Source of the DNA: an uncultured Eubacteriales bacterium
Lineage (GTDB): Bacteria > Pseudomonadota > Alphaproteobacteria > RF32 > CAG-239
Reading direction: 5' to 3'
Assembly: GCA_963632615.1 (NCBI GenBank)
Contig: CAVGVF010000001.1
Span: 72,636-136,635, forward strand
Length of the DNA: 64,000 bases
Shown here piece after piece: positions 16,133 through 54,706 of the stretch. How positions within the stretch are numbered: the first letter of the stretch is position 1; every line of letters starts with the position of its first letter. The notes below the pieces were generated by a model, which saw only the letters and a list, made by a program, of their open reading frames with translations, was not told where the DNA came from and did no database searches. The translations under genes were made by a program, and so were the position numbers.

Positions 16133-16921
16133 TTAAAAACTAACTTGTACAGCATATCTGTATTTACTTGGATCTTTTCCTTTATAAGCAGAACATAACT
16201 CATTCATATCATTGAAATTCATATTATTCATACATCTTACGCCTTTAGTGCAATAGCGATTTCCCCAAACGCTATACATTTTTATATCTCCGGCCAGCGG
16301 TTCACGCCATATTTTCCGGACATTATCCTTAAAATTCAAAGCAGCTTCCATAAAGGCCTGACAGACTTTAGGGCTAGCACTGTCAAAACCTAACCAATAA
16401 AAGAAGCCGAACGCCCTGCTTCCTTTATTACCGCTTGAATATAAAGTTACACCAAAGCCGTGTGAATCTTGAAAAGCATTTCCCCGCACATATTTAAATT
16501 CTCTCGGCAGCATATTTAGACTTTTCATAGTATATACATAATTTGTTTCCGTTCCCCAGCCGCCGATTTCTTGATTATTAAAATCATTTCTAATTTGTAT
16601 AAAATTATAAAAAACCTCAGTCCAGGCATCTCTTAATTTAATAAATTTATACCGTTCCATAGCTTTAGAGTAACCGGCAATACCACCCACGCTAAGAACC
16701 GCGATAATCGCCAGCACGCCCAGCATTTCTATCATTGAGCGGCCAACACAATTACCTGTCACACTTGGCTTTGAGCGAAGCGAATTCGCCGAGTGTCCAG
16801 GATGGTACATCCGATTAAAAAACTTGCAACAAATACTAAACACGCGTCCCAAGCACCAGTCATTGCCGGACATGACGGAGAACAAACGAAAGCTAAAACC
16901 ATTATTCAAATTATTATTCAT
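16133..16921 (-). CDS. prepilin-type N-terminal cleavage/methylation domain protein (type IV pilin/pseudopilin-like), paralogue 1
   Basis: Contains G-RSMIEMLGVLAIIAVLSVGGIAGY with Glu at +5 and a hydrophobic helix. The ATG at 16921 sits behind RBS GGAGG in exactly the same leader context as paralogue 2. The leader peptide is unusually long (49 aa); an internal Met at 16810 would give a 23-aa leader. Confidence 0.6.
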   Translation of the reverse strand: MNNNLNNGFSFRLFSVMSGNDWCLGRVFSICCKFFNRMYHPGHSANSLRSKPSVTGNCVGRSMIEMLGVLAIIAVLSVGGIAGYSKAMERYKFIKLRDAWTEVFYNFIQIRNDFNNQEIGGWGTETNYVYTMKSLNMLPREFKYVRGNAFQDSHGFGVTLYSSGNKGSRAFGFFYWLGFDSASPKVCQAFMEAALNFKDNVRKIWREPLAGDIKMYSVWGNRYCTKGVRCMNNMNFNDMNELCSAYKGKDPSKYRYAVQVSF

Positions 16922-16945
16922 ATTTCTGAACCTCCTTAAACAAAT

Positions 16946-17126
16946 AAAAAAACAAAACCCACCAAAATGGCGGGCGGATGTTCAGAAACCGTACTATACT
17001 AAAACGGCTCGGCTTATTCAGCTCATAGCCTTATTTAGCCGACATCCGCTCTAGGCAGAAATCGGCATAAAAAAATTTTAAGTCGTTTATGCATAACGAC
17101 TAGTATAGAAAGGGTTTCTGACGCCC
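16946..17126 (-). promoter_or_regulatory. conserved structured 5' leader element (copy 1) ending in a terminator-like hairpin plus U-tract
   Basis: About 85% identical to 30390-30575 in reverse-complement orientation. Compensatory changes lie in two helices. Putative promoter TTGCTT-N18-TATACT at 17148-17177 on the minus strand. Confidence 0.6.
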
Positions 17127-17371
17127 TGCATTTTGCAATGCAGTTTTAGTATAGCTTATCGCCGTTAAAATAAGCAAGGAAAATTTGAAATTATATTTAC
17201 TGTAAATATAGTGATAAATAAAATAGAGAAAAAATTAAATGAAATCAGTACAAAACTTTCAGAAACTCGGATAGCGTGTATAAATGCGACGGAATTTTTA
17301 AGCGACGTGTACACAATAGTACACGAGCGCAAAAATCCCTAGCAGATACCAGCTAGACGAGTTTCATACCA

Positions 17372-30157: not shown

Positions 30158-30242
30158 GCGCTTGTGGCGGAATCGGTAGACGCTGCAGACTTAAAATCTG
30201 TTGGGATTTATCCCGTGCCAGTTCAAGTCTGGCCTAGCGCAC
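30158..30242 (+). tRNA. tRNA-Leu (anticodon TAA)
   Basis: Cloverleaf with long variable arm, anticodon loop cuuAAaa, T-loop GTTCAAGTC, encoded CCA. Promoter TTGCAA-N17-TATATA at 30116-30144. Confidence 0.85.
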
Positions 30243-30250
30243 CAATAAAA

Positions 30251-30275
30251 AGGCTTTCCTTTAGGAGAGCTTTTT
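30251..30275 (+). terminator. intrinsic terminator after tRNA-Leu
   Basis: gctttcctttaggagagc followed by T7. Confidence 0.7.
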
Positions 30276-30306
30276 TTATGAATAACCGACAGCTAATACA
30301 CATTCG

Positions 30307-30331
30307 TCCGCTAATGAGGCGGATTTTTTTT
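30307..30331 (+). terminator. second tandem intrinsic terminator
   Basis: tccgctaatgaggcgga followed by T8. Confidence 0.6.
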
Positions 30332-30389
30332 CTTTACAAAACTAATTTGCTTAATTAAACTGAAAATTAGATATACGAGAGTTTATCTA

Positions 30390-30575
30390 GGGCGTCAGAA
30401 ACCCTTTTAGTTGCAGATAGTCGCTTTTGCATAAGCGACTTTAAACAGATTATGCCGATTTCTGTCATTGGACGGATGTCGGCTGAATAAGGCTATGCGC
30501 TGAATAAGCCGAGCCATTCTGCATCTGCAACTAATGGTTTCTGAACATCCGCCCGCTTTTTGCGGGTTTTGTTTT
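30390..30575 (+). promoter_or_regulatory. conserved structured 5' leader element (copy 2) ending in terminator-like hairpin plus U-tract
   Basis: Paralogous to 16946-17126. Helices: tcagaaacc/ggtttctga; tagttgcagat/atctgcaacta; agtcgcttttgcataagcgact; tcggct...agccga. Terminator-like gcccgcTTTTTgcgggtTTTGTTTT at 30551-30575. Promoter TTGCTT-N18-ATATAC at 30347-30376. Confidence 0.6.
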
Positions 30576-30602
30576 ATGTGCAATTTTTGGAGGTTTAGAA
30601 AT

Positions 30603-31250
30603 ATGTATAAGAATTTGGAAAAAGGACGTTCCATGATAGAAATGCTCGGCGTCATCGCTATTATTGCTGTTTTATCAGTCGGCGGGATTGCCGGGTATTC
30701 CAAGGCTATGGAAAAATTTAAGGTTAATAAAGCCGTATCAGAATACAGTTATTTAATCCAAGGGCTTATGGAACATCTGGAAAATATTCAAAAAATGTCA
30801 AATGTTCAGGAGGGCGATGTTCATCACGGGCTGGTAAATGTTGTGCAAGCAGCCGGTTTAGTGCCGGAAACTTGGGAAAATTCCGGCAATCCGGCAGATG
30901 ATAGAATGATTGATCCTTATGGCAATGTGATTCAAATATTTTCACGGAACAGCCGTTTGGTTATAGATATGTATCTTGGTGGCTTTAGCAACGTCGAAAA
31001 CGGCAGTGCTTCTCTTTCTTTTTCGCCAAAGTTTTGCAGCGTATTGATGCAGGATGTGGTTAAACCATTGTCTTCGGTTTTGCATCATGTTTGGTTTACA
31101 AATGGCAGCGGCTTATCTTATTTAGGAGATAAATTTTGCCGTTCAGGGCAAAAATGTGTTCGAAATTTGACCTTAATCGATATACAAAAAACTTGTAATT
31201 ATTGCACTAAAGAATCAGGTAAACTTTGCGGGCTAATTTTAGAATTTTAA
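30603..31250 (+). CDS. prepilin-type N-terminal cleavage/methylation domain protein, paralogue 2
   Basis: MYKNLEKG^RSMIEMLGVIAIIAVLSVGG: short leader, Glu+5, hydrophobic helix. RBS GGAGG 9 nt upstream. Cys-containing C-terminal domain. The track ORF start at 30534 is upstream of the RBS. Confidence 0.65.
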   Translation: MYKNLEKGRSMIEMLGVIAIIAVLSVGGIAGYSKAMEKFKVNKAVSEYSYLIQGLMEHLENIQKMSNVQEGDVHHGLVNVVQAAGLVPETWENSGNPADDRMIDPYGNVIQIFSRNSRLVIDMYLGGFSNVENGSASLSFSPKFCSVLMQDVVKPLSSVLHHVWFTNGSGLSYLGDKFCRSGQKCVRNLTLIDIQKTCNYCTKESGKLCGLILEF

Positions 31251-31843: not shown

Positions 31844-31932
31844 AACAACTTCCTTTTTCTCTTTGAAATTAAACAAAAAAGCCGTCTGAAAAAGACGACC
31901 GGAAGTTGAGAACTATTGTATATAAGTATAGT

Positions 31933-31964
31933 GTAGCATATTAGCGTATAGCATATTTTGCTAC
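31933..31964 (-). promoter_or_regulatory. conserved leader hairpin motif shared with the other two pilin leaders
   Basis: Stem gtagca/tgctac encloses loop aaatatGCTATACGCTaata. Compare tcggct/agccga enclosing gaataagGCTATGCGCTgaata at 30479-30512. Confidence 0.5.
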
Positions 31965-32089
31965 CTTCCGATCAATAGATCAGAAGGTATTTTACGTCTA
32001 ATATTTGACGTATATACAAGAGGTTCTCACACCTCGGACAGACTATCGCCTGTCTGCTGTAAAGTTATAAAAAAAGCGGTAAAATATCA

Positions 32090-32140: not shown

Positions 32141-32749
32141 CTACATCAAATTGTGAATATTGTATTCGTCATAGCCCTCATAATAGTAGCTGACATCAAT
32201 ACCTTTCATAAAAACTTCGCGCTCGTTGATTTTATCCGTGAGGGCGTTTTGCAGCAAATGTTTGATTTCTATATCTTTAATCGGACTTCTTTCCATGGCG
32301 GAAAGGTAATCCGCCTTATCAATTTTATTCCAATCCACGACTTTTTTCAGTTCTTTTTTAAATATTAAATCAAGCCAGATTCTAGTCGCCCGCCCGTTTC
32401 CCTCTCTAAACGGGTGGGCAACGTTCATTTCCACATATTTTTCCACGATTTCATCAAAAGTTGATTGCGGCATTTTATCTATTTGCTTTAGTGATTGCGC
32501 TAAATACATAACCGGAGCAAACCGAAAATTGCTTTTAGCAATGTTGACGGTGCGGAGCTTGCCGGCAAAATCGTAAATATCTTCAAACAAATACTTATGA
32601 ATTTGCTTAAGACCGCTAAAAGTGCCGACTTTTATTTTCTCAATTTTTCCGCTGTCAAAGAGTTTTTTAGCTTTGATTTTGCTTATTTTCTCTTCAGCTT
32701 TGTTCAGTTCTATTTGGTCCGTGATATTTAATTTATTTTCTAAAACCAT
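32141..32749 (-). CDS. fic: Fic family protein, class III (C-terminal inhibitory helix)
   Basis: Fic motif HPFREGNGRATR and C-terminal S-YYY-EG (SxxxEG) inhibitory motif; 202 aa, the NmFic-like size. Confidence 0.85.
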   Translation of the reverse strand: MVLENKLNITDQIELNKAEEKISKIKAKKLFDSGKIEKIKVGTFSGLKQIHKYLFEDIYDFAGKLRTVNIAKSNFRFAPVMYLAQSLKQIDKMPQSTFDEIVEKYVEMNVAHPFREGNGRATRIWLDLIFKKELKKVVDWNKIDKADYLSAMERSPIKDIEIKHLLQNALTDKINEREVFMKGIDVSYYYEGYDEYNIHNLM

Positions 32750-32768
32750 ATCAATACCTTTAAAATCT

Positions 32769-35700
32769 TTAGAACTTATAGCCTAAATTGAACAGATAAT
32801 AAACATTGCTCTTTTGTTCAAGCGGAGCGTTTACAGTCGCGCTGAGCGAAAGTTTTTTATAGTCGTACTGCGCCTTTACAGTCAATAAACCGCTGTCGCG
32901 CTGCAAACGGTTGCTGTTGATTTGATATGAGCCAAGCATATTGTCCATGGTCACCATCGTTGAATATTTGCTGCCGAATTCATGGAAATAACGCCCGCCG
33001 GCAGTCAGCAAAACAGACTGTTCTTTGCCGAGGTCAAAATCTTTCTTAATATCCATACCGATAACAGATTGAACTGATGTAACTTTGTCGCTGTCGGCTT
33101 TAAGTCCGCCGTTATTTTCTTTTAAGCCGTCAACTTTTACTTCAGTGATATTAGCGCCGGCAACCGGTTCAAGCTGCGCGATGTCAAGGTCTATAGTTTG
33201 GCGGGCTTCAGCGTCAATACCATAGTAGTAGTTGGTTAAATCAGCCTTATAGGCTTTATCCACGCCGCTGCGGCTGTAGTGACCCTTGCCGAAACCGATT
33301 TTAGGCTTAGCCATAGCGCGGAAATTATCATTGCTATAAGTCAGCGGAGCAAACACTTCCAGCACATTGTTATAACGAGATGAATCGTCATCAAAATCGC
33401 TGTCGCTGCGAGCCGCCGCCGCACCGAAACCTGCACGCCAGTTATTGGCAATTTGATAGTCGCTGAAACCGTAAACAGCTGTAACCTTGTCTTTATAGCC
33501 CGAAACATTGTGTTTGCCGTCAAACTCTTGCTGATAAGCCAAAACATTAACTTTAGCACGGCTTATTTCATTTGTTTGCGCCAAAATATCGTCATTGGCC
33601 GCGCGGTTGATATTGGCCAGCAAATCTAAGTCTTGTTTCGCCAAATTCGGAATCATGCTAAAGCCTAACTCGCGGTTTATAGCCGTATCAAAAGCCGAAG
33701 CAGTAGCCATACCTTTTAAGGTATTGAAAACGCCCTCGCCTTTTTGCGCTGCATAGTTTGTGCTTAAATATGCCGCCAGCTCTTTGTTGGCAACAGTTTC
33801 ATCAAACGATTTCATAGTCATAATTACGTCGGTGTTGCCGGATTCGTTAGCGGCTTTTTCAGCATTAAACATATAAGAGCCGGAAACCACATTTAGACCT
33901 GCATCTTTGCCGATAAATGAGTTATCGTTGCGGTAGGTCGTTTCAAATCCGCTTTGGGTAATATCCGCATCGGCTGTAACCGTGCCTTTTAAGGCCGGAG
34001 CTTTATAAGTTCCGTTTTTGCTGATGGCAATAACACCGGAATCTTTTGTTGAAGCATCAAAATCAAAAACATCATTATAGCTTACGGTGCCGTGATTTTT
34101 AAACACAGAGTTGTTTTGCACCATCATAAATCCGGAGCCTGACTGAGTTGACGTGCTTTCTTCACAGTCCATGCCGCTGCACAGTTCAGCACCGTTGACG
34201 GCATCTATAATGCCGTTATTGGTTGCGGTTCCGCCTTCATTTACGATAATGCCGTAAGATGTGCCGGATTGATTATTTTGGTTTATATAAATTCTTCCGT
34301 CGCTGTCGTTGGTAAAGGTTCCGCCTGCAACTCTTACGCCGGCTGAATTTGTACCGTAAACATGAATTTGGCCTTTATTGGTAACTTCGCCTTTTTCAAT
34401 ATAAATACCGGTGCCGCGGTCAACAAAATCTGTAATAATCACATTTCCGGAATCATCAAAACTGCCGGTGCCGATAGTAATCAGCCCGCTGTTTTCAAAA
34501 TTAGCTTCTTCGCCGGTAACTTTTACACCGTAGCCGTTATTGCCGATAACAGTTATATTGCCGGTGTTTTTGCTTTCTCCGCCGCTGACAGACATAGCCG
34601 TGCTGCCGGCTCCCGTCACTTTGATGTTTGAATTGTTGGTAGTTGTTCCGGCTGTTTCAATGCCGGTGCTGTAGTTTGTGCCGACTTCAATAGAGCCGTT
34701 GTTCTCAACAGTTCCTTCATCCGAAACAGAAACAGCCGTATTGCCGCTTCCGCTGTTGTTGCTGCCCAAAACCAGCTCAATGTTGCTGTTGTTGGTAAAA
34801 GTGCCTTTGCCGGCTATAACCGCTGTGCTGTTACTTGTGTTATTCAGGCGCAAAGTGCCGTTGTTGGTAATTTTTGTGCCTGTGCCGCCTGACGAGGCGT
34901 CAATGATGGTGCCTTTTTCAGTAATAGATATCTGCACATTGTCATTGACCGTTAAAGAAGCATTATCCATCAGTTTCGCTAAAGTTCCCTGTTCAAAGCT
35001 CATGCTTTTTTTCAAGGTTAAATCGCCGACTACCAGAAAATATGTCATGGTGGAAGCGGCTTCGGTGCTGCAATTTTCATCTGTAGTCGGATCGCAGATA
35101 TTAACGTTGCCGATATTGTCAATCACGGCTTTGCCGCTGATTTGGAATACGGTGGCGTTAGTGCCGAAAATTTTAATAATATTGTTTTTTATAACAGCGC
35201 CGTCCTGCAGTTCGCCGGTTCCGGCCGAATAAATGCCGATATTGTTATCTCCGTAAAGATTGATAACGCCGTTATTATATATATAGCTGTTTCCGGTGGC
35301 GTAAATGCCGAACGAATATTTGCCGTTTACGTTTATTACACCGGTTTTGTCGTTGATAACGTTGGCAATTCCGCTTGCATCGCTGGCCATGCCTACAGAA
35401 TAATCTGTTCCGACATCAATGCTGCCTTGATTCGTCATTTTTGCCGTGGAAATAACATCTTTATCCATATACATGCCGGCATTGTTGAAATTAGTGCCGT
35501 TTGAAGTCAAAATGATTTTACCGGTATTGGTTGCCGTACCTTGTTTTGAAGATACAGTCATTGCCGAGGTATGCGCCGATGACAGATTGATTGTACCGGA
35601 GTTGGTTATGGTTTCGGTTTCGGATGAGGCAACGGATGAGGTGGATGACGGAGATTTTGTGTTCATCACGCTTTGCTTTACGGTTAAAGTGAATTTGTCG

Positions 35701-37865
35701 GCCAAAGTGGCTGCTTCGCTGGACGAGCCGGAGCCTGACGAACCGGAAGAGCCGGATGATGAAGATTCATCATTCAGAGTGGCATCGTAAATGATGGTGC
35801 CGGCATTTACCAAGTTACTGTAATTTCCGCTGAAAACATCGGTGCCGATGGCGTTTTTATAAACATGGATGGTGCCGTTGTTTATCAGATTTGTTCCGCC
35901 GCTGTAGTCATTTCGGAGGGCTGTCGATTTATTTGAATAAATGTTAATCTGTCCGTTATTTACCAAAGATGTCAGAGTACTATCGCCGGAGCCGTACATG
36001 GCGATATTGTTGGTATAGCGGGTATTGTCGCTGGAACCCAGAGTAATTGTTCCGTTTTTATCATTCAGCAATGTTCCGCCGTTATATGAAGCCATTCCGA
36101 AGCCGTTGCTGGCATTTAACTGAATATTGCCTTTGTTGGTAACTGTTTGCTTGGTTGTGGTATATAGTCCGGATACCGAACCCGAACCTTCAACTGCAAG
36201 CATACCGTAGGTCATGCGCTGGTTATCGCCGTTAGTCTGAATGGTAATGTTTCCGGTGTTGGTAATGCTTCCGCTGTGAACAGACTGCATGCCGGCGGCA
36301 ACGGCAACAGAGTCTGATGAGCTTCCGGATTCGGAACTGTCATCTAAAGTAATATTGATTTTTCCGCTGTTGGTTGCCGTTGTATTGGCGTCTGCCCGCA
36401 TTCCGACAATTCCGCCCAAGCCTTTGCGCAAAGTTTTGGTTGTGTCAAAGGTGTATTGCCCCGTATATCCCAAATCTATGATACCGCTGTTGCTCAAAAC
36501 AGATTTATCGGCTCTTTGAATATTTTTAGAACCATTTAAAAATCCATCGTCCAAATAGCTTCCCATACCGATGATATTCACTTTGATTTCCGAGGCAGCG
36601 GCTCCGGCATCGCCGGCGCTGAGTTTTATGGTGCCGCTGTTTGAAGCTGTGTTGGTTTGATTGATGGCTTGCGAACCGGTATTCAGTATCATTGTTTCCA
36701 TACCGATAATGGTGCCGGATACGGATGTAACTTCCTTGGAACTGCTGTCGGAATTTTCATCTTGAGCAAAAATACCGTTCAGAATGCCGCCCGAAGAACT
36801 GCCGTTTTCAGAATCATCTTTGGTCGGGTCGCTGATTGCTTTAATGGCCGAACCGTTAATTTCTCCGGTATTTATAATCTGCGAGCCGTTATCGGCATAC
36901 ATACCGATAATCGTGTTGTTTTCGGTATATCCGGAAAAATTGAGGTTGATACCGTTGGCATCAGGGTCTTGGATAACCCCTTTTCCGTTATTGTAGGCAA
37001 TGGAATTATTGCTGGCAATCATCGCCACTGAATTATTAAACGCGTCAACATTTATATAGCCGTTGTTTGTAACCGTGCTTTTGCGGATTGCCGCCATTGC
37101 GGCCGAGCCTTCTCCGGCGGATATTTTAGTGTTCAGGCTGTTTGTGTATGAGCCGCCGTCAAGGGCTTCCAAGCCGACATCCATATATTTGCCGGCTTCC
37201 AGTACATTTTTATTGAAGTTAATTTTAGCGATTTCCGCTGTTTTGGTGTTTTTTATGTTTAATAAGCTGCTGTTTACGGCTGTTCCGCTGGTTGATTTTG
37301 CCACAGAGCCTTGCGAGCCTAAGGTTTCGCCGATATAGTTATTAGTTTCGGTTTCAGAGCTGCTGCTGCCGCCCCCGCCGCCTCCGCTCATTGCTAATGC
37401 GGCAATACCTCCGCCGACAGCCAAGCCGCCCAGCAGCCACCAGGTTGTAGAGGAGATTTTATATTTTTCTTTGCCCATTGTTCCATAAGCTTCACGAGGG
37501 GTTGCGGTTACGGAAACAGCTTTGGAATTGTTTACAAAATCTTCATAATATTCTATTTTTTGCACGCATGGATGGCGAGGGTTAGCTCCGGCGGCGCGGA
37601 AGGCATTGTAGGTGTAGGCATCTCTGTTTTGGGCGGCAACGCAAAGTCCGGTGTCGCCGTTTTGGTTGACACTGTCAATATTCATACCGCGGCGGACAGA
37701 AGCTCTCAAAGCTTCAACTTCGCCGTTTTGCGCCAGATTATACATTTTATTGAAAGACAGCGGCGACAAATTATAGGCTTTAGCCTCAGGCGCGGCTATA
37801 GTCAGGCTGAAAGACGCCAAAGACAGTAAACCAACGGTTTTTAGTATTATTTTGTTATTAAACAT
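32769..37865 (-). CDS. large autotransporter (type Va secretion) with beta-helical repeat passenger
   Basis: Sec signal MFNNKIILKTVGLLSLASFSLTIAAPEAKA; Gly/Ser linkers; dozens of degenerate N(N/S/T)G(T/N)I beta-helix repeats; C-terminal ~280-aa beta-barrel ending ...LFNLGYKF. Confidence 0.8.
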   Translation of the reverse strand: MFNNKIILKTVGLLSLASFSLTIAAPEAKAYNLSPLSFNKMYNLAQNGEVEALRASVRRGMNIDSVNQNGDTGLCVAAQNRDAYTYNAFRAAGANPRHPCVQKIEYYEDFVNNSKAVSVTATPREAYGTMGKEKYKISSTTWWLLGGLAVGGGIAALAMSGGGGGGSSSSETETNNYIGETLGSQGSVAKSTSGTAVNSSLLNIKNTKTAEIAKINFNKNVLEAGKYMDVGLEALDGGSYTNSLNTKISAGEGSAAMAAIRKSTVTNNGYINVDAFNNSVAMIASNNSIAYNNGKGVIQDPDANGINLNFSGYTENNTIIGMYADNGSQIINTGEINGSAIKAISDPTKDDSENGSSSGGILNGIFAQDENSDSSSKEVTSVSGTIIGMETMILNTGSQAINQTNTASNSGTIKLSAGDAGAAASEIKVNIIGMGSYLDDGFLNGSKNIQRADKSVLSNSGIIDLGYTGQYTFDTTKTLRKGLGGIVGMRADANTTATNSGKINITLDDSSESGSSSDSVAVAAGMQSVHSGSITNTGNITIQTNGDNQRMTYGMLAVEGSGSVSGLYTTTKQTVTNKGNIQLNASNGFGMASYNGGTLLNDKNGTITLGSSDNTRYTNNIAMYGSGDSTLTSLVNNGQINIYSNKSTALRNDYSGGTNLINNGTIHVYKNAIGTDVFSGNYSNLVNAGTIIYDATLNDESSSSGSSGSSGSGSSSEAATLADKFTLTVKQSVMNTKSPSSTSSVASSETETITNSGTINLSSAHTSAMTVSSKQGTATNTGKIILTSNGTNFNNAGMYMDKDVISTAKMTNQGSIDVGTDYSVGMASDASGIANVINDKTGVINVNGKYSFGIYATGNSYIYNNGVINLYGDNNIGIYSAGTGELQDGAVIKNNIIKIFGTNATVFQISGKAVIDNIGNVNICDPTTDENCSTEAASTMTYFLVVGDLTLKKSMSFEQGTLAKLMDNASLTVNDNVQISITEKGTIIDASSGGTGTKITNNGTLRLNNTSNSTAVIAGKGTFTNNSNIELVLGSNNSGSGNTAVSVSDEGTVENNGSIEVGTNYSTGIETAGTTTNNSNIKVTGAGSTAMSVSGGESKNTGNITVIGNNGYGVKVTGEEANFENSGLITIGTGSFDDSGNVIITDFVDRGTGIYIEKGEVTNKGQIHVYGTNSAGVRVAGGTFTNDSDGRIYINQNNQSGTSYGIIVNEGGTATNNGIIDAVNGAELCSGMDCEESTSTQSGSGFMMVQNNSVFKNHGTVSYNDVFDFDASTKDSGVIAISKNGTYKAPALKGTVTADADITQSGFETTYRNDNSFIGKDAGLNVVSGSYMFNAEKAANESGNTDVIMTMKSFDETVANKELAAYLSTNYAAQKGEGVFNTLKGMATASAFDTAINRELGFSMIPNLAKQDLDLLANINRAANDDILAQTNEISRAKVNVLAYQQEFDGKHNVSGYKDKVTAVYGFSDYQIANNWRAGFGAAAARSDSDFDDDSSRYNNVLEVFAPLTYSNDNFRAMAKPKIGFGKGHYSRSGVDKAYKADLTNYYYGIDAEARQTIDLDIAQLEPVAGANITEVKVDGLKENNGGLKADSDKVTSVQSVIGMDIKKDFDLGKEQSVLLTAGGRYFHEFGSKYSTMVTMDNMLGSYQINSNRLQRDSGLLTVKAQYDYKKLSLSATVNAPLEQKSNVYYLFNLGYKF

Positions 37866-54286: not shown

Positions 54287-54451
54287 AATTATTAAATATT
54301 AAAAATAAAAAACTGCTTGGATTATAATATAATGTCAATATTTTGTCAAATTATATTATTTGAGATAAAAAAAGCCAAAGATAAAACAGTTTTAAGAATT
54401 TGTATTTTACAAAAATAAAAAATCGCCTCTTAAAAGGCGATTTTCATGAAA

Positions 54452-54475
54452 TGATGCCATTAGCAAGAAAGTCCA
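54452..54475 (-). pseudogene. orphan 3'-terminal fragment of tRNA-Thr with duplicated terminator
   Basis: Minus strand ...tcttgctaatggcaTca matches the tRNA-Thr 3' end apart from CCA to TCA. Part of a ~55-bp direct repeat (54416-54472 versus 54596-54652). Confidence 0.55.
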
Positions 54476-54595
54476 TCGCCTGACGGCTCACGACATCTCC
54501 GCCGCCTGCGCATAAGTTCGCTTGGCGATGTCGATTTCGGACTTTCGGATTGCGTTCGCAATCTTTCGCAAGTCTTCTTCTTGCTTAATTAAAAC

Positions 54596-54626
54596 ATAAA
54601 AATCGCCTCTTAAAAGGCGATTTTTA
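54596..54626 (-). terminator. intrinsic terminator after tRNA-Thr
   Basis: Minus strand atcgccttttaagaggcgat followed by a T-run. Confidence 0.65.
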
Positions 54627-54631
54627 TGAAA

Positions 54632-54706
54632 TGGTGCCATTAGCAAGAATCGGACTTGCGACCCCGTCATTACCAATGACGTGCTCTACCACTGAGCTAT
54701 AATGGC
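54632..54706 (-). tRNA. tRNA-Thr (anticodon GGT)
   Basis: Minus strand GCCATTATAGCTCAGTGGTAGAGCACGTCATTGGTAATGACGGGGTCGCAAGTCCGATTCTTGCTAATGGCACCA. Confidence 0.85.

Follow-up and report, generated by a model that had tools for sequence, protein, structure and literature searches.

The leader and the genes it precedes

The DNA analysed here, called the window throughout, is a 64,000-nucleotide (nt) stretch of contig CAVGVF010000001.1 (positions 72,636 to 136,635; assembly GCA_963632615.1) from an uncultured bacterium placed in the alphaproteobacterial lineage RF32, CAG-239. Three paralogous type IV pilin-like genes lie in the window, and two of them follow copies of one structured leader: copy 2 on the plus strand, ahead of the gene that starts at 30603, and copy 1 on the minus strand, ahead of the gene that starts at 16921. 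An earlier description made from the letters alone (the sequence-only reading) had put segments 30390-30575 (+) and 17126-16946 (-) at about 85% identity; alignment of 30330-30620 with the reverse complement of 16905-17200 gives 84% column identity over about 290 columns. The similarity spans the promoter region, a core of about 185 nt, a GC-rich hairpin with its U-tract, the GGAGG ribosome-binding site (RBS), the ATG and the opening codons. Two blocks of the core, GGTTTCTGAACATCCGCCCG and GCTGAATAAGCCGAGCC, each occur exactly twice in the window, where 0-0.1 occurrences are expected by chance, and compared with dinucleotide shuffles the two copies fold with energies of -85.7 kcal/mol (z = -8.8) and -70.2 kcal/mol (z = -6.1). 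The presence of a repeated structured leader in the window is confirmed, and we consider it likely that this leader is a cis-acting transcription-attenuation element. Each copy would form a complete expression cassette, in the order sigma-70-type promoter, structured RNA, intrinsic terminator and, 14-35 nt further on, RBS and start codon. The parts of the two copies and their genes are as follows.

30333-30338 and 30356-30361, plus strand: promoter of leader copy 2 (-35 TTTACA, 17-nt spacer, -10 TAAACT), from a promoter scan and conservation
30368-30389, plus strand: 5'-terminal hairpin P0 (TAGATA...TATCTA), with five of six pairs changing on both sides and many G-U pairs
30390-30403, plus strand: 5' strand of outer helix P1 (GGGCGU and CAGAAACC), pairing with 30536-30550
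30408-30418, plus strand: 5' strand of the paralogue-specific long-range helix P2, pairing with 30523-30533
30419-30440, plus strand: hairpin P3 with a covarying stem and the loop GCAUAA at 30429-30434
30454-30466, plus strand: region 1, the 5' strand of P4 (GCCGAUUUCUGUC)
30471-30483, plus strand: region 2, the 3' strand of P4 (GACGGAUGUCGGC), able to pair with region 1 or region 3
30482-30515, plus strand: near-invariant core, with tandem GCUGAAUAAG repeats at 30482-30491 and 30499-30508 and hairpin P5 at 30491-30515 with a GAAUA pentaloop
30523-30543, plus strand: 3' strands of P2 (30523-30533) and P1 (30536-30543), from covariation counts and RNAalifold
30545-30554, plus strand: region 3 (ACAUCCGCCC), putative antiterminator partner of region 2, overlapping the 5' arm of the terminator by 4 nt
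30551-30575, plus strand: predicted intrinsic terminator, region 3:4 (GCCCGC-UUUUU-GCGGGU, then UUUGUUUU)
30589-31250, plus strand: RBS GGAGG (30589-30593) and pilin-like gene, ATG at 30603, with the prepilin signal MYKNLEKG followed by RSMIEMLGVIAII
17177-17172 and 17153-17148, minus strand: promoter of leader copy 1 (TTGCTT, 18-nt spacer, TATACT)
16947-17177, minus strand: leader copy 1, with P0 at 17142-17127, core at 17126-16972, terminator at 16975-16957 and U-tract to about 16947
17066-17055, 17049-17038 and 16981-16972, minus strand: regions 1, 2 and 3 of copy 1
16133-16935, minus strand: RBS GGAGG (16935-16931) and copy 1 pilin-like gene, ATG at 16921, with an in-frame insertion of about 50 codons between MNNNLNNG and GRSMIEML
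31843-31247, minus strand: third pilin paralogue

The architecture of copy 1 is that of copy 2, and its P2 differs (UCUAUACU/AGUAUAGU).

Homologues of the leader were collected with a 21-mer from the core, which found at least 80 loci among 185,579 species-representative genomes. The sample comprised 21 metagenome loci and 80 genome loci, the latter giving 84 distinct copies of the type found twice in the window (class A) from about 25 gut alphaproteobacterial metagenome-assembled genomes (MAGs); 79 class A sequences were aligned with MAFFT (alignment A4). Nearly all loci listed in the genome scan belong to such MAGs, and at least 13 come from a single assembly. The assemblies CAVKTH01 (L009, L011, L022, L029, L030, L043, L051, L058, L059, L071, L078, L080 and L081), CAVIDY01 (L066) and CAVEOB01 (L038) carry the labels Bacteroidaceae or [Ruminococcus] gnavus although they contain the alphaproteobacterial leader in many copies, with its pilin genes; mislabelling or mis-binning is the probable cause. 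At related loci that were found by way of protein homologues the element stands before other pilin genes, and it is missing at one syntenic locus.

All 84 copies have the same orientation relative to the downstream open reading frame (ORF), and in nearly all of them the start codon lies 99-116 nt past the anchor motif. About 60 copies precede pilin-like genes. The implied restriction to pilin genes in the sequence-only reading did not hold, as about 15 of the 84 precede other genes, which encode lipoproteins with PEGA or TRL domains, an opacity-family beta-barrel outer-membrane protein, a GT29 sialyltransferase, an autotransporter-like repeat protein and an Mrr-domain protein.

Promoter and extent of the RNA

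When the upstream sequences are right-aligned on GGGCG, a promoter resembling CTTTAC(A/T)-N17-TAAAAT is kept in most of the 84 homologues. Its -10 hexamer ends about 7 nt 5' of the variable hairpin P0, which directly precedes GGGCG. In copy 2 the corresponding TTTACA/TAAACT pair is the only sigma-70-like site that the promoter scan found on the plus strand of 30250-30650, and we infer a transcription start at about 30367-30369. The -35 element TTGCTT claimed earlier is present in copy 1 (TTGCTT-N18-TATACT, 17177-17148), a variant shared with two further loci (L056 and L074); in copy 2 it does not stand, the family-conserved promoter there being TTTACA-N17-TAAACT (30333-30361). The RNA also begins earlier than the 5' start that had been placed at 30390, with the covarying hairpin P0 (30368-30389; 17142-17127) lying between promoter and GGGCG. 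Because the -10 hexamer sits about 7 nt before P0 and the RNA runs on to the U-tract, the predicted leader RNA is about 205-210 nt long. Between terminator and RBS the promoter scan found no promoter-like site in either window copy, and there is no room for one.

Upstream of the copy 2 promoter two successive terminator-like hairpins occupy 30250-30324, directly after a tRNA-Leu gene (30158-30244). These hairpins are predicted to insulate the copy 2 leader from upstream transcription. The upstream neighbour of copy 1 is rho, a 417-amino acid ORF identified through Pfam. On the idea that RNAs like sRNA-Xcc1 (see below) might be tied to IS605, we also considered a guide RNA of the TnpB/IscB kind and rejected it, as this 417-amino acid ORF is Rho and no transposase lies near either copy.

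The default fold

RNAalifold applied to alignment A4 independently returns P0, P1, P2, P3, P4, P5 and the terminator, and in 26 of its 57 pairs both partners change with the pairing preserved. P2 and the pseudoknot described below were scored by alignment-free tests and RNAalifold, the MAFFT columns being register-shifted there (helix 3 reads as 42% paired). The outer helix, inner long-range helix and internal hairpin of the sequence-only reading are all present and correspond to P1, P2 and P3. In P1, columns 50-52/206-208 of A4 show double changes in 29-33 of the 79 sequences and none unpaired; the three central pairs are distributed as C-G in 46, A-U in 18 and G-C in 15, as A-U in 50 and G-C in 29, and as G-C in 50, A-U in 14, C-G in 10 and U-A in 5.

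The P2 helix is the most variable, with 58 distinct sequences among 78 copies, all of them complementary. Cognate P2 duplexes have a mean energy of -7.9 kcal/mol against -1.6 kcal/mol for non-cognate ones (p = 5e-45), the 623 pairs comprise 617 Watson-Crick and 6 G-U pairs, and RNAalifold counts 29-45 double changes per pair. P4 is paired in 98% of cells and changes by way of G-U pairs (U-G in 58 and C-G in 20 at one pair; U-A in 35, C-G in 29 and U-G in 7 at another). The core columns are invariant in A4, with P5 paired in 99.6% of cells.

The loop of P3, GCAUAA (30429-30434), pairs as a pseudoknot with the linker UUAUGC (30450-30455), ten nt downstream. Covariants of this pairing include GCAUA/UAUGC, GCACA/UGUGC, GCAAA/UUUGC and ACAUAA/UUAUGU, and it is fully paired in 75 of 79 sequences; 2000 shuffles averaged 63 such sequences and never exceeded 68. 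As loop and linker covary, the default fold (OFF) holds a pseudoknot abutting P4. The palindromic P3 loop was also considered as a kissing-dimer site and rejected, because many variants are non-palindromic and the conserved GCAUA is explained by the pseudoknot.

The GC hairpin and U-tract of the earlier description were found in both copies (30551-30567 and 16975-16957, each with its T-rich tail), together with the GGAGG RBS. An intrinsic terminator is accordingly positioned between promoter and gene, and it is conserved in the 79 homologues with a covarying stem (G-C in 51, G-U in 14 and A-U in 12 at one pair; U-A in 32 and C-G in 25 at another). Taken across these homologues, the changes in P0, P1, P2, P3, P4, the terminator and the pseudoknot bear out the proposal, made originally from compensatory changes between the two copies, of function at the RNA level.

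The helices differ in the kind of pair they use: P1, P2 and P3 are almost exclusively Watson-Crick, with no G-U among the covarying pairs of P1, and P0, P4, P5 and the terminator contain many G-U pairs. The distribution of P2 sequences was examined as well. None of 165 within-genome pairs of leaders share an identical P2, and 22 of 1605 between-genome pairs do, these being orthologues in different species. Selection of P2 as a within-genome uniqueness barcode was rejected, since about 2.3 identities would be expected among the 165 pairs and their absence is not significant, and rapid hypermutation of P2 is ruled out by the identical sequences at orthologous loci of different species.

Two loci carry P2 sequences swapped relative to their genes. 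L030 (1424-1653) is a near-identical orthologue of the copy 2 pilin gene with a leader that has the P2 and P3 of window copy 1, and L066 (1415-1644) has the P2 of window copy 2 before a different pilin gene. These swaps show an exchange of leaders between loci, probably through gene conversion across the tract of about 130 nt from one P2 strand to the other.

Could the repeat act as DNA rather than RNA, whether as an invertible promoter segment (inverton) with the P1/P2 inverted repeat at its ends or as a miniature mobile element? P1 and P2 do form an inverted repeat of 20-25 bp that is almost purely Watson-Crick, as recombining DNA arms would be, and the multiple copies and the leaders swapped between loci would suit such an element. 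However, an inverton should occur in both orientations with its promoter inside the segment, whereas all 84 copies share one internal orientation relative to the flanking promoter and gene, and the promoter lies outside the repeat with none inside it. The sequence-only reading had itself named an inverton as a refuting outcome, and the strand dependence of the structure argues against one: P0, P4, P5 and the terminator depend on G-U pairs that are conserved and on U-to-C changes opposite G, which are sensible only in RNA of this strand and would become A-C mismatches on the other. The stability of P2 variants across species at orthologous loci speaks against either kind of DNA element. For a mobile element in particular, the anchor motif has 0 matches in viral contigs, target-site duplications were not seen, and the unit is always fused in register to RBS and ATG. 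We regard a DNA-level explanation as very improbable.

An alternative fold that overlaps the terminator

Region 2 (GGNCGGAUGU) is complementary to region 3 (ACAUCCGCCC) and hence also to four bases of the terminator arm GCCCGC. This alternative pairing was first pointed out by a sub-threshold alignment of the 3' half of the leader with the Rfam family sRNA-Xcc1. In the alternative fold (ON), hairpins a (CGGCU/AGCCG) and b (GCCGU/ACGGU) can replace P5, P2 and P1; in copy 2, hairpin b is formed by GCCAU (30513-30517) with AUGGU (30534-30538) and encloses the 3' strand of P2. The tcggct/agccga stem that had been drawn around a tandem GCTGAATAAG repeat belongs here: it exists in the alternative fold and is absent from the minimum-energy fold, in which TCGGC closes P4.

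Hairpin a is 98.7% paired in A4. At columns 141/211 the class A 2:3 helix has G-C in 76 sequences, U-A in 2 and another combination in 1, and a pair of hairpin b is G-C in 76 and A-U in 3 with no mismatch. The ON-fold pairs of class A thus appear to covary cleanly, if rarely. In class A the mean local stabilities are -16.7 kcal/mol for 1:2, -13.7 kcal/mol for 2:3 and -11.4 kcal/mol for 3:4. The conserved alternative pairing covers the 5' arm of the terminator by 4 nt and covaries in class A and in the class B leaders described below, in agreement with the riboswitch- or attenuator-type expression platform that had been suggested for this DNA.

In the mechanism that we propose, the OFF state would have P0, P1, P2, P3 with its pseudoknot, P4 (1:2), P5 and the terminator (3:4) formed; with P4 formed, region 3 would be free for the terminator, RNA polymerase would stop and a short leader RNA would be released. 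If region 1 were occupied or P4 weakened, the 2:3 pairing, which is more stable than the terminator, would form first and sequester the first four bases of the terminator 5' arm before region 4 is transcribed, so that transcription would enter the gene; hairpins a and b could then take over from P5, P2 and P1. The pseudoknotted 5' domain (P1-P2-P3/pseudoknot-P4-P5) would act as the sensor, and an effector would set the fraction of read-through. Occupying or destabilising region 1, the pseudoknot or P4 would turn the gene on, and stabilising the pseudoknotted 5' domain would keep it off. The comparison shows the two folds and their covariation, the promoter, the terminator and the constant placement ahead of the gene; that termination is regulated, and in which direction the switch works, is deduced.

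Region 2 is purine-rich and resembles the downstream Shine-Dalgarno sequence, in class A as ACGGAUG (30471-30483) compared with the RBS AAACGGAG or GGAGG (30589-30593), and in class B as UGGAAGG compared with the RBS AAGGAAG (window 31855-31848). Because of this resemblance regions 1 and 3 look like anti-Shine-Dalgarno sequences and could in principle pair with the RBS.

Several points weigh against attenuation as the function of the leader. The ON-fold covariation of class A amounts to about three independent events, with one violation (L014). Over the whole molecule the OFF fold is favoured by about 18 kcal/mol over the nested ON fold, which is also why we take OFF as the default; when region 1 is blocked in silico RNAfold still does not choose 2:3, although the program cannot score 2:3 together with P1 and P2, a pseudoknotted combination. 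Termination and read-through are themselves predictions from sequence. Finally, a strong promoter and a strong terminator are equally expected of an independent small-RNA (sRNA) gene, an alternative to which we return below.

Among the possible effectors (small ligand, protein or ribosome) the ribosome can be considered first. The 1:2, 2:3 and 3:4 topology is that of trp-type attenuators. A ribosome starting at an xUG codon by region 1 could cover region 1, giving 2:3 and read-through, or could travel on to the stops in the GCUGAAUAAG repeats and cover region 2, giving termination. The codon at the border of pseudoknot and region 1 is AUG in 67 sequences, GUG in 9, UUG in 3 and never CUG; the reading frame closes after 5-27 codons, with the two repeats (17 nt apart, start to start) providing UGA or UAA stops in all three frames, and in the OFF fold the pseudoknot would mask the start codon. 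What such a mechanism needs, a conserved translatable ORF that has an RBS and sets regulatory codons over region 1, was nevertheless not found. No Shine-Dalgarno sequence precedes the xUG, though the downstream genes have strong ones; past MPIS the peptide varies in both length and sequence, and indels in the loop shift its frame. The equivalent codon in class B is often AUA or ACG, and the variation among A, G and U at the first codon position is fully accounted for by the covariation of the pseudoknot. A leader-peptide attenuator is, on this evidence, improbable.

The leader might also work with no effector at all, as an RNA thermometer, as a switch that folds stochastically or as a leader for stabilisation or processing, giving fixed or temperature-dependent escape from termination and heterogeneous surface antigens. 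Two folds with a graded order of stability are encoded, and pilins, an opacity-type outer-membrane protein, a sialyltransferase and lipoproteins are kinds of product that are phase-varied in other bacteria. Such surface genes are subject to phase variation in Neisseria and Haemophilus. Passive partitioning, however, would need neither more than 40 consecutive nearly invariant nucleotides nor a covarying pseudoknot and a multi-helix junction, and conservation of this extent is typical of RNAs that bind a ligand or protein. We consider an effector-free leader distinctly improbable. For the attenuation model we take the most likely effector to be a ligand, either a small molecule or a protein, that binds the pseudoknotted 5' domain.

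Class B and further leader types

The leader of the third pilin paralogue in the window is related to class A. The earlier description had noted a related hairpin at 31933-31964; the relatedness holds, and the hairpin proves to be part of a complete class B leader.

31865-32059, minus strand: class B leader upstream of the third pilin paralogue (ATG 31843), with P0, P1, P2, P3 and P4 as in class A and a different core
31905-31897, minus strand: region 3 of the class B leader (CUUCCGGUC), with region 2 being GAUCGGAAG
31899-31881, minus strand: terminator stem of the class B leader
31880-31875, minus strand: U-tract of the class B leader

The class A profile (nhmmer) aligns this leader weakly over its full length (E = 2.7e-4) and its fold has z = -7.4; weak full-length matches to the profile also lie before other pilin paralogues. 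Alignment with five other class B leaders shows shared helices and terminator and a different core (UACCUUCUGG / CCGGAAGGUAGCAAAAUAUGCUAUA). Other class B sites are L002:4410-4604, L005:2890-3020, L007:2781-2887, L026:2252-2452, L082:5525-5642 and L089-L109, the metagenome scan having added more leaders of this class. Among 22 class B leaders the 9-bp 2:3 helix (NNNN[C/U]GGAAG with CUUCC[G/A]NNNN) comprises 190 Watson-Crick pairs, 4 G-U pairs and 4 mismatches in 198 cells, and each of six region 2 variants is matched by its region 3 (permutation P = 0.003). The competing 1:2 helix of class B contains 52 G-U pairs.

Two further types were recognised. Class C (L002:2700-3000 on the plus strand; L025, L054, L063 and L088) is closed by a long-range helix of about 22 bp, GUGUGUAAAAAAAACGACCGUU / AACGGUCGUUUUUUUUACACAC. 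Class D (L065:2450-2800, plus strand) has GGAGCUUUCAAC.../GUUGAACUCUCC, and its CGGGGAG, read by eye, is complementary to the pre-terminator CUCUCCG. Since it is seen in class A, in class B and in L065, the predicted ability of region 2 to pair with either of two partners is a design feature conserved across the leader superfamily. The 79 pilin genes in the loci collected divide into 57 with class A, 6 with class B and 16 with another type, in a sample biased towards class A.

Comparison with known systems

No Rfam 15 family reached gathering score in the window, and none of the riboswitch families, including c-di-GMP-I and c-di-GMP-II, matched the three leader regions even at E <= 10. Published work was searched for an RNA motif associated with pilin genes in Alphaproteobacteria, and nothing relevant came up. 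Judged by these searches the leader is a previously undescribed RNA family, absent from Rfam, of what is predicted to be a known regulatory kind. The sequence-only reading, of a structured RNA leader with an attenuator-type platform that matches no described class, is supported.

The trp leader of E. coli and the PyrR-controlled pyr leaders of Bacillus are attenuators built from an anti-antiterminator, an antiterminator and a terminator. Our leader resembles them in having four regions, of which 2 can pair with 1 or 3 and 3 with 2 or 4, in the 3:4 hairpin with U-tract as terminator, in the stability order 1:2 > 2:3 > 3:4, and in that the choice of fold would decide read-through. Unlike these classical systems it has no conserved leader peptide, and its 1:2 hairpin is set inside a larger domain with two long-range clamps and a pseudoknot. 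There is no match to a PyrR binding site apart from a chance-level match of 16 bits in class B. The leader also differs in its distribution, in 10-20 copies per genome with their own promoters before single surface-protein genes, not biosynthetic operons. Analogies to CsrA sites, the RfaH ops element and boxB were considered and rejected, because classes A and B do not have the candidate motifs in common.

A c-di-GMP-II riboswitch lies upstream of the type IV pilin gene pilA1 of Clostridioides difficile. The two systems share a structured, pseudoknotted 5' leader with a conserved core and covarying stems, an intrinsic terminator and a type IV pilin-like gene. They differ in host phylum, and the leader matches no Rfam riboswitch model in sequence or structure.

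The closest Rfam match is sRNA-Xcc1 (RF02221), an 88-nt sRNA of integron cassettes, prophages and plasmids in Proteobacteria, copies of which often lie just upstream of genes such as symE, sometimes several per genome. In its alternative fold the 3' half of class A aligns end to end with this model, sharing the outer helix GGNCGGAUG/CAUCCGCCC around two hairpins and the motifs AAUA...GAAUAAGCCG and GGUUUCUGAAC. The helices of the Xcc1-type three-way junction can form in the leader (91% paired, with three covarying pairs) as an alternative, not minimum-energy, fold. The scores are 34.4 bits for copy 1 (E = 1.7e-4) and 24.0 bits for copy 2 (E = 0.05), far under the gathering threshold of 53 bits, and class B has no match. 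In contrast to our leader, sRNA-Xcc1 has no 5' domain (P0-P3, pseudoknot and region 1), and descriptions present it as an sRNA that stands free and acts in trans; it also differs in host, gene context and size. The resemblance may reflect distant homology or chance.

This match bears on whether the leader is an independent sRNA gene, encoding a trans-acting or protein-sequestering RNA of about 205 nt, perhaps related to sRNA-Xcc1, for which the position of the neighbouring gene would be secondary. Its own consensus-like promoter and strong terminator would lead one to expect an abundant short RNA, the Xcc1-like three-way junction coincides with the ON fold and its covariation, and sRNA-Xcc1 itself is described upstream of genes (symE and that of an ORF6N protein). 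The position and orientation of the leader relative to the start codon are, however, fixed in essentially all 84 copies, the repeat unit takes in RBS, ATG and first codons, and a separate promoter for the gene has neither space nor a promoter-like site. An alternative pairing that overlaps the terminator in two sequence classes would be purposeless in a stand-alone sRNA, and neither the Xcc1 scores nor class B favour the relationship. Cis and trans roles are in any case not mutually exclusive. We judge an independent sRNA gene unlikely.

Downstream genes and their neighbourhood

The proteins encoded behind the window leaders carry the class III signal of type IV pilins or pseudopilins, in which a short leader ends in G and is followed by E at +5 and a hydrophobic helix (MYKNLEKG followed by RSMIEMLGVIAIIAVLSVGG). 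A Pfam N_methyl motif was found in the third paralogue only, weakly and below the cut-off (E = 3.8e-4). The pilin-like protein has 4735 homologues, those with names being called type II secretion GspH-family proteins in MAGs of uncultured Alphaproteobacteria, and an exact-sequence look-up of the window's own protein returned no record. Contigs syntenic with the pilin locus come from human gut metagenomes.

In many of the pilin genes, in-frame insertions that range from 30 to more than 130 codons separate the conserved first codons (MYKNF..) from the mature N-terminus (GRSMIEML), as in the window at 16900-16760 (minus strand) and in L009, L029, L036, L045, L048, L056, L071, L078, L088 and others. 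The inserts resemble translated GC-rich palindromic repeats, with peptides such as VILGFIPRI, SVILRR, KYPSPDAKASPSPSRGEG..HRPWCHKILGT and GLLRSARNDV and DNA such as GGATTGCTTCGC...GCTCGCAATGAC. The ORF stays open in most of these cases, with frameshifted copies in L018, L039, L054 and L085. The prepilin leader peptide therefore seems to be a hotspot at which small repeats insert and are tolerated.

Beside the pilin cluster (32141-37865, minus strand) lie a Fic/DOC-domain gene (32141-32749) and an ORF of 1698 amino acids (32769-37865), the counterparts of which in the syntenic loci L001 and L002 have BigA-like and autotransporter domains. Elsewhere in the window a 59-nt direct repeat, 92% identical, occupies 54411-54469 and 54591-54649 and contains the hairpin AATCGCCTCTTAAAAGGCGATT; its second copy overlaps the start of a tRNA-Thr gene (54632-54706, minus strand).

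Implications

The genes behind the leaders point to a putative regulon of cell-surface components, comprising 10-20 pilin-like paralogues per genome together with lipoproteins, the opacity-type outer-membrane protein and the sialyltransferase. More tentatively, the leader could represent a novel riboswitch class, or a family made up of classes A-D, each with its own core, in which the pseudoknotted 5' domain binds a small signalling molecule (a cyclic dinucleotide or a host-derived metabolite) and co-ordinates 10-20 individually promoted surface-antigen genes by termination. The paralogue-specific P0 and P2 'barcodes' could further tune the threshold of each gene.

The leader family is large and not in Rfam, and its two competing folds and its pseudoknot show unusually clean covariation, which makes the family a candidate orphan riboswitch or attenuator. 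The many near-identical leaders with gene-specific stems within one genome amount to a natural experiment on the copying and tuning of an attenuator. The leader most likely acts as an on/off gate for surface-protein expression, and it appears to control the whole pilin-like and surface-protein repertoire in human- and animal-gut Alphaproteobacteria of a clade without cultured members, for which almost no regulation is known. The identity of the effector would reveal the signal that these bacteria use for surface remodelling in the host.

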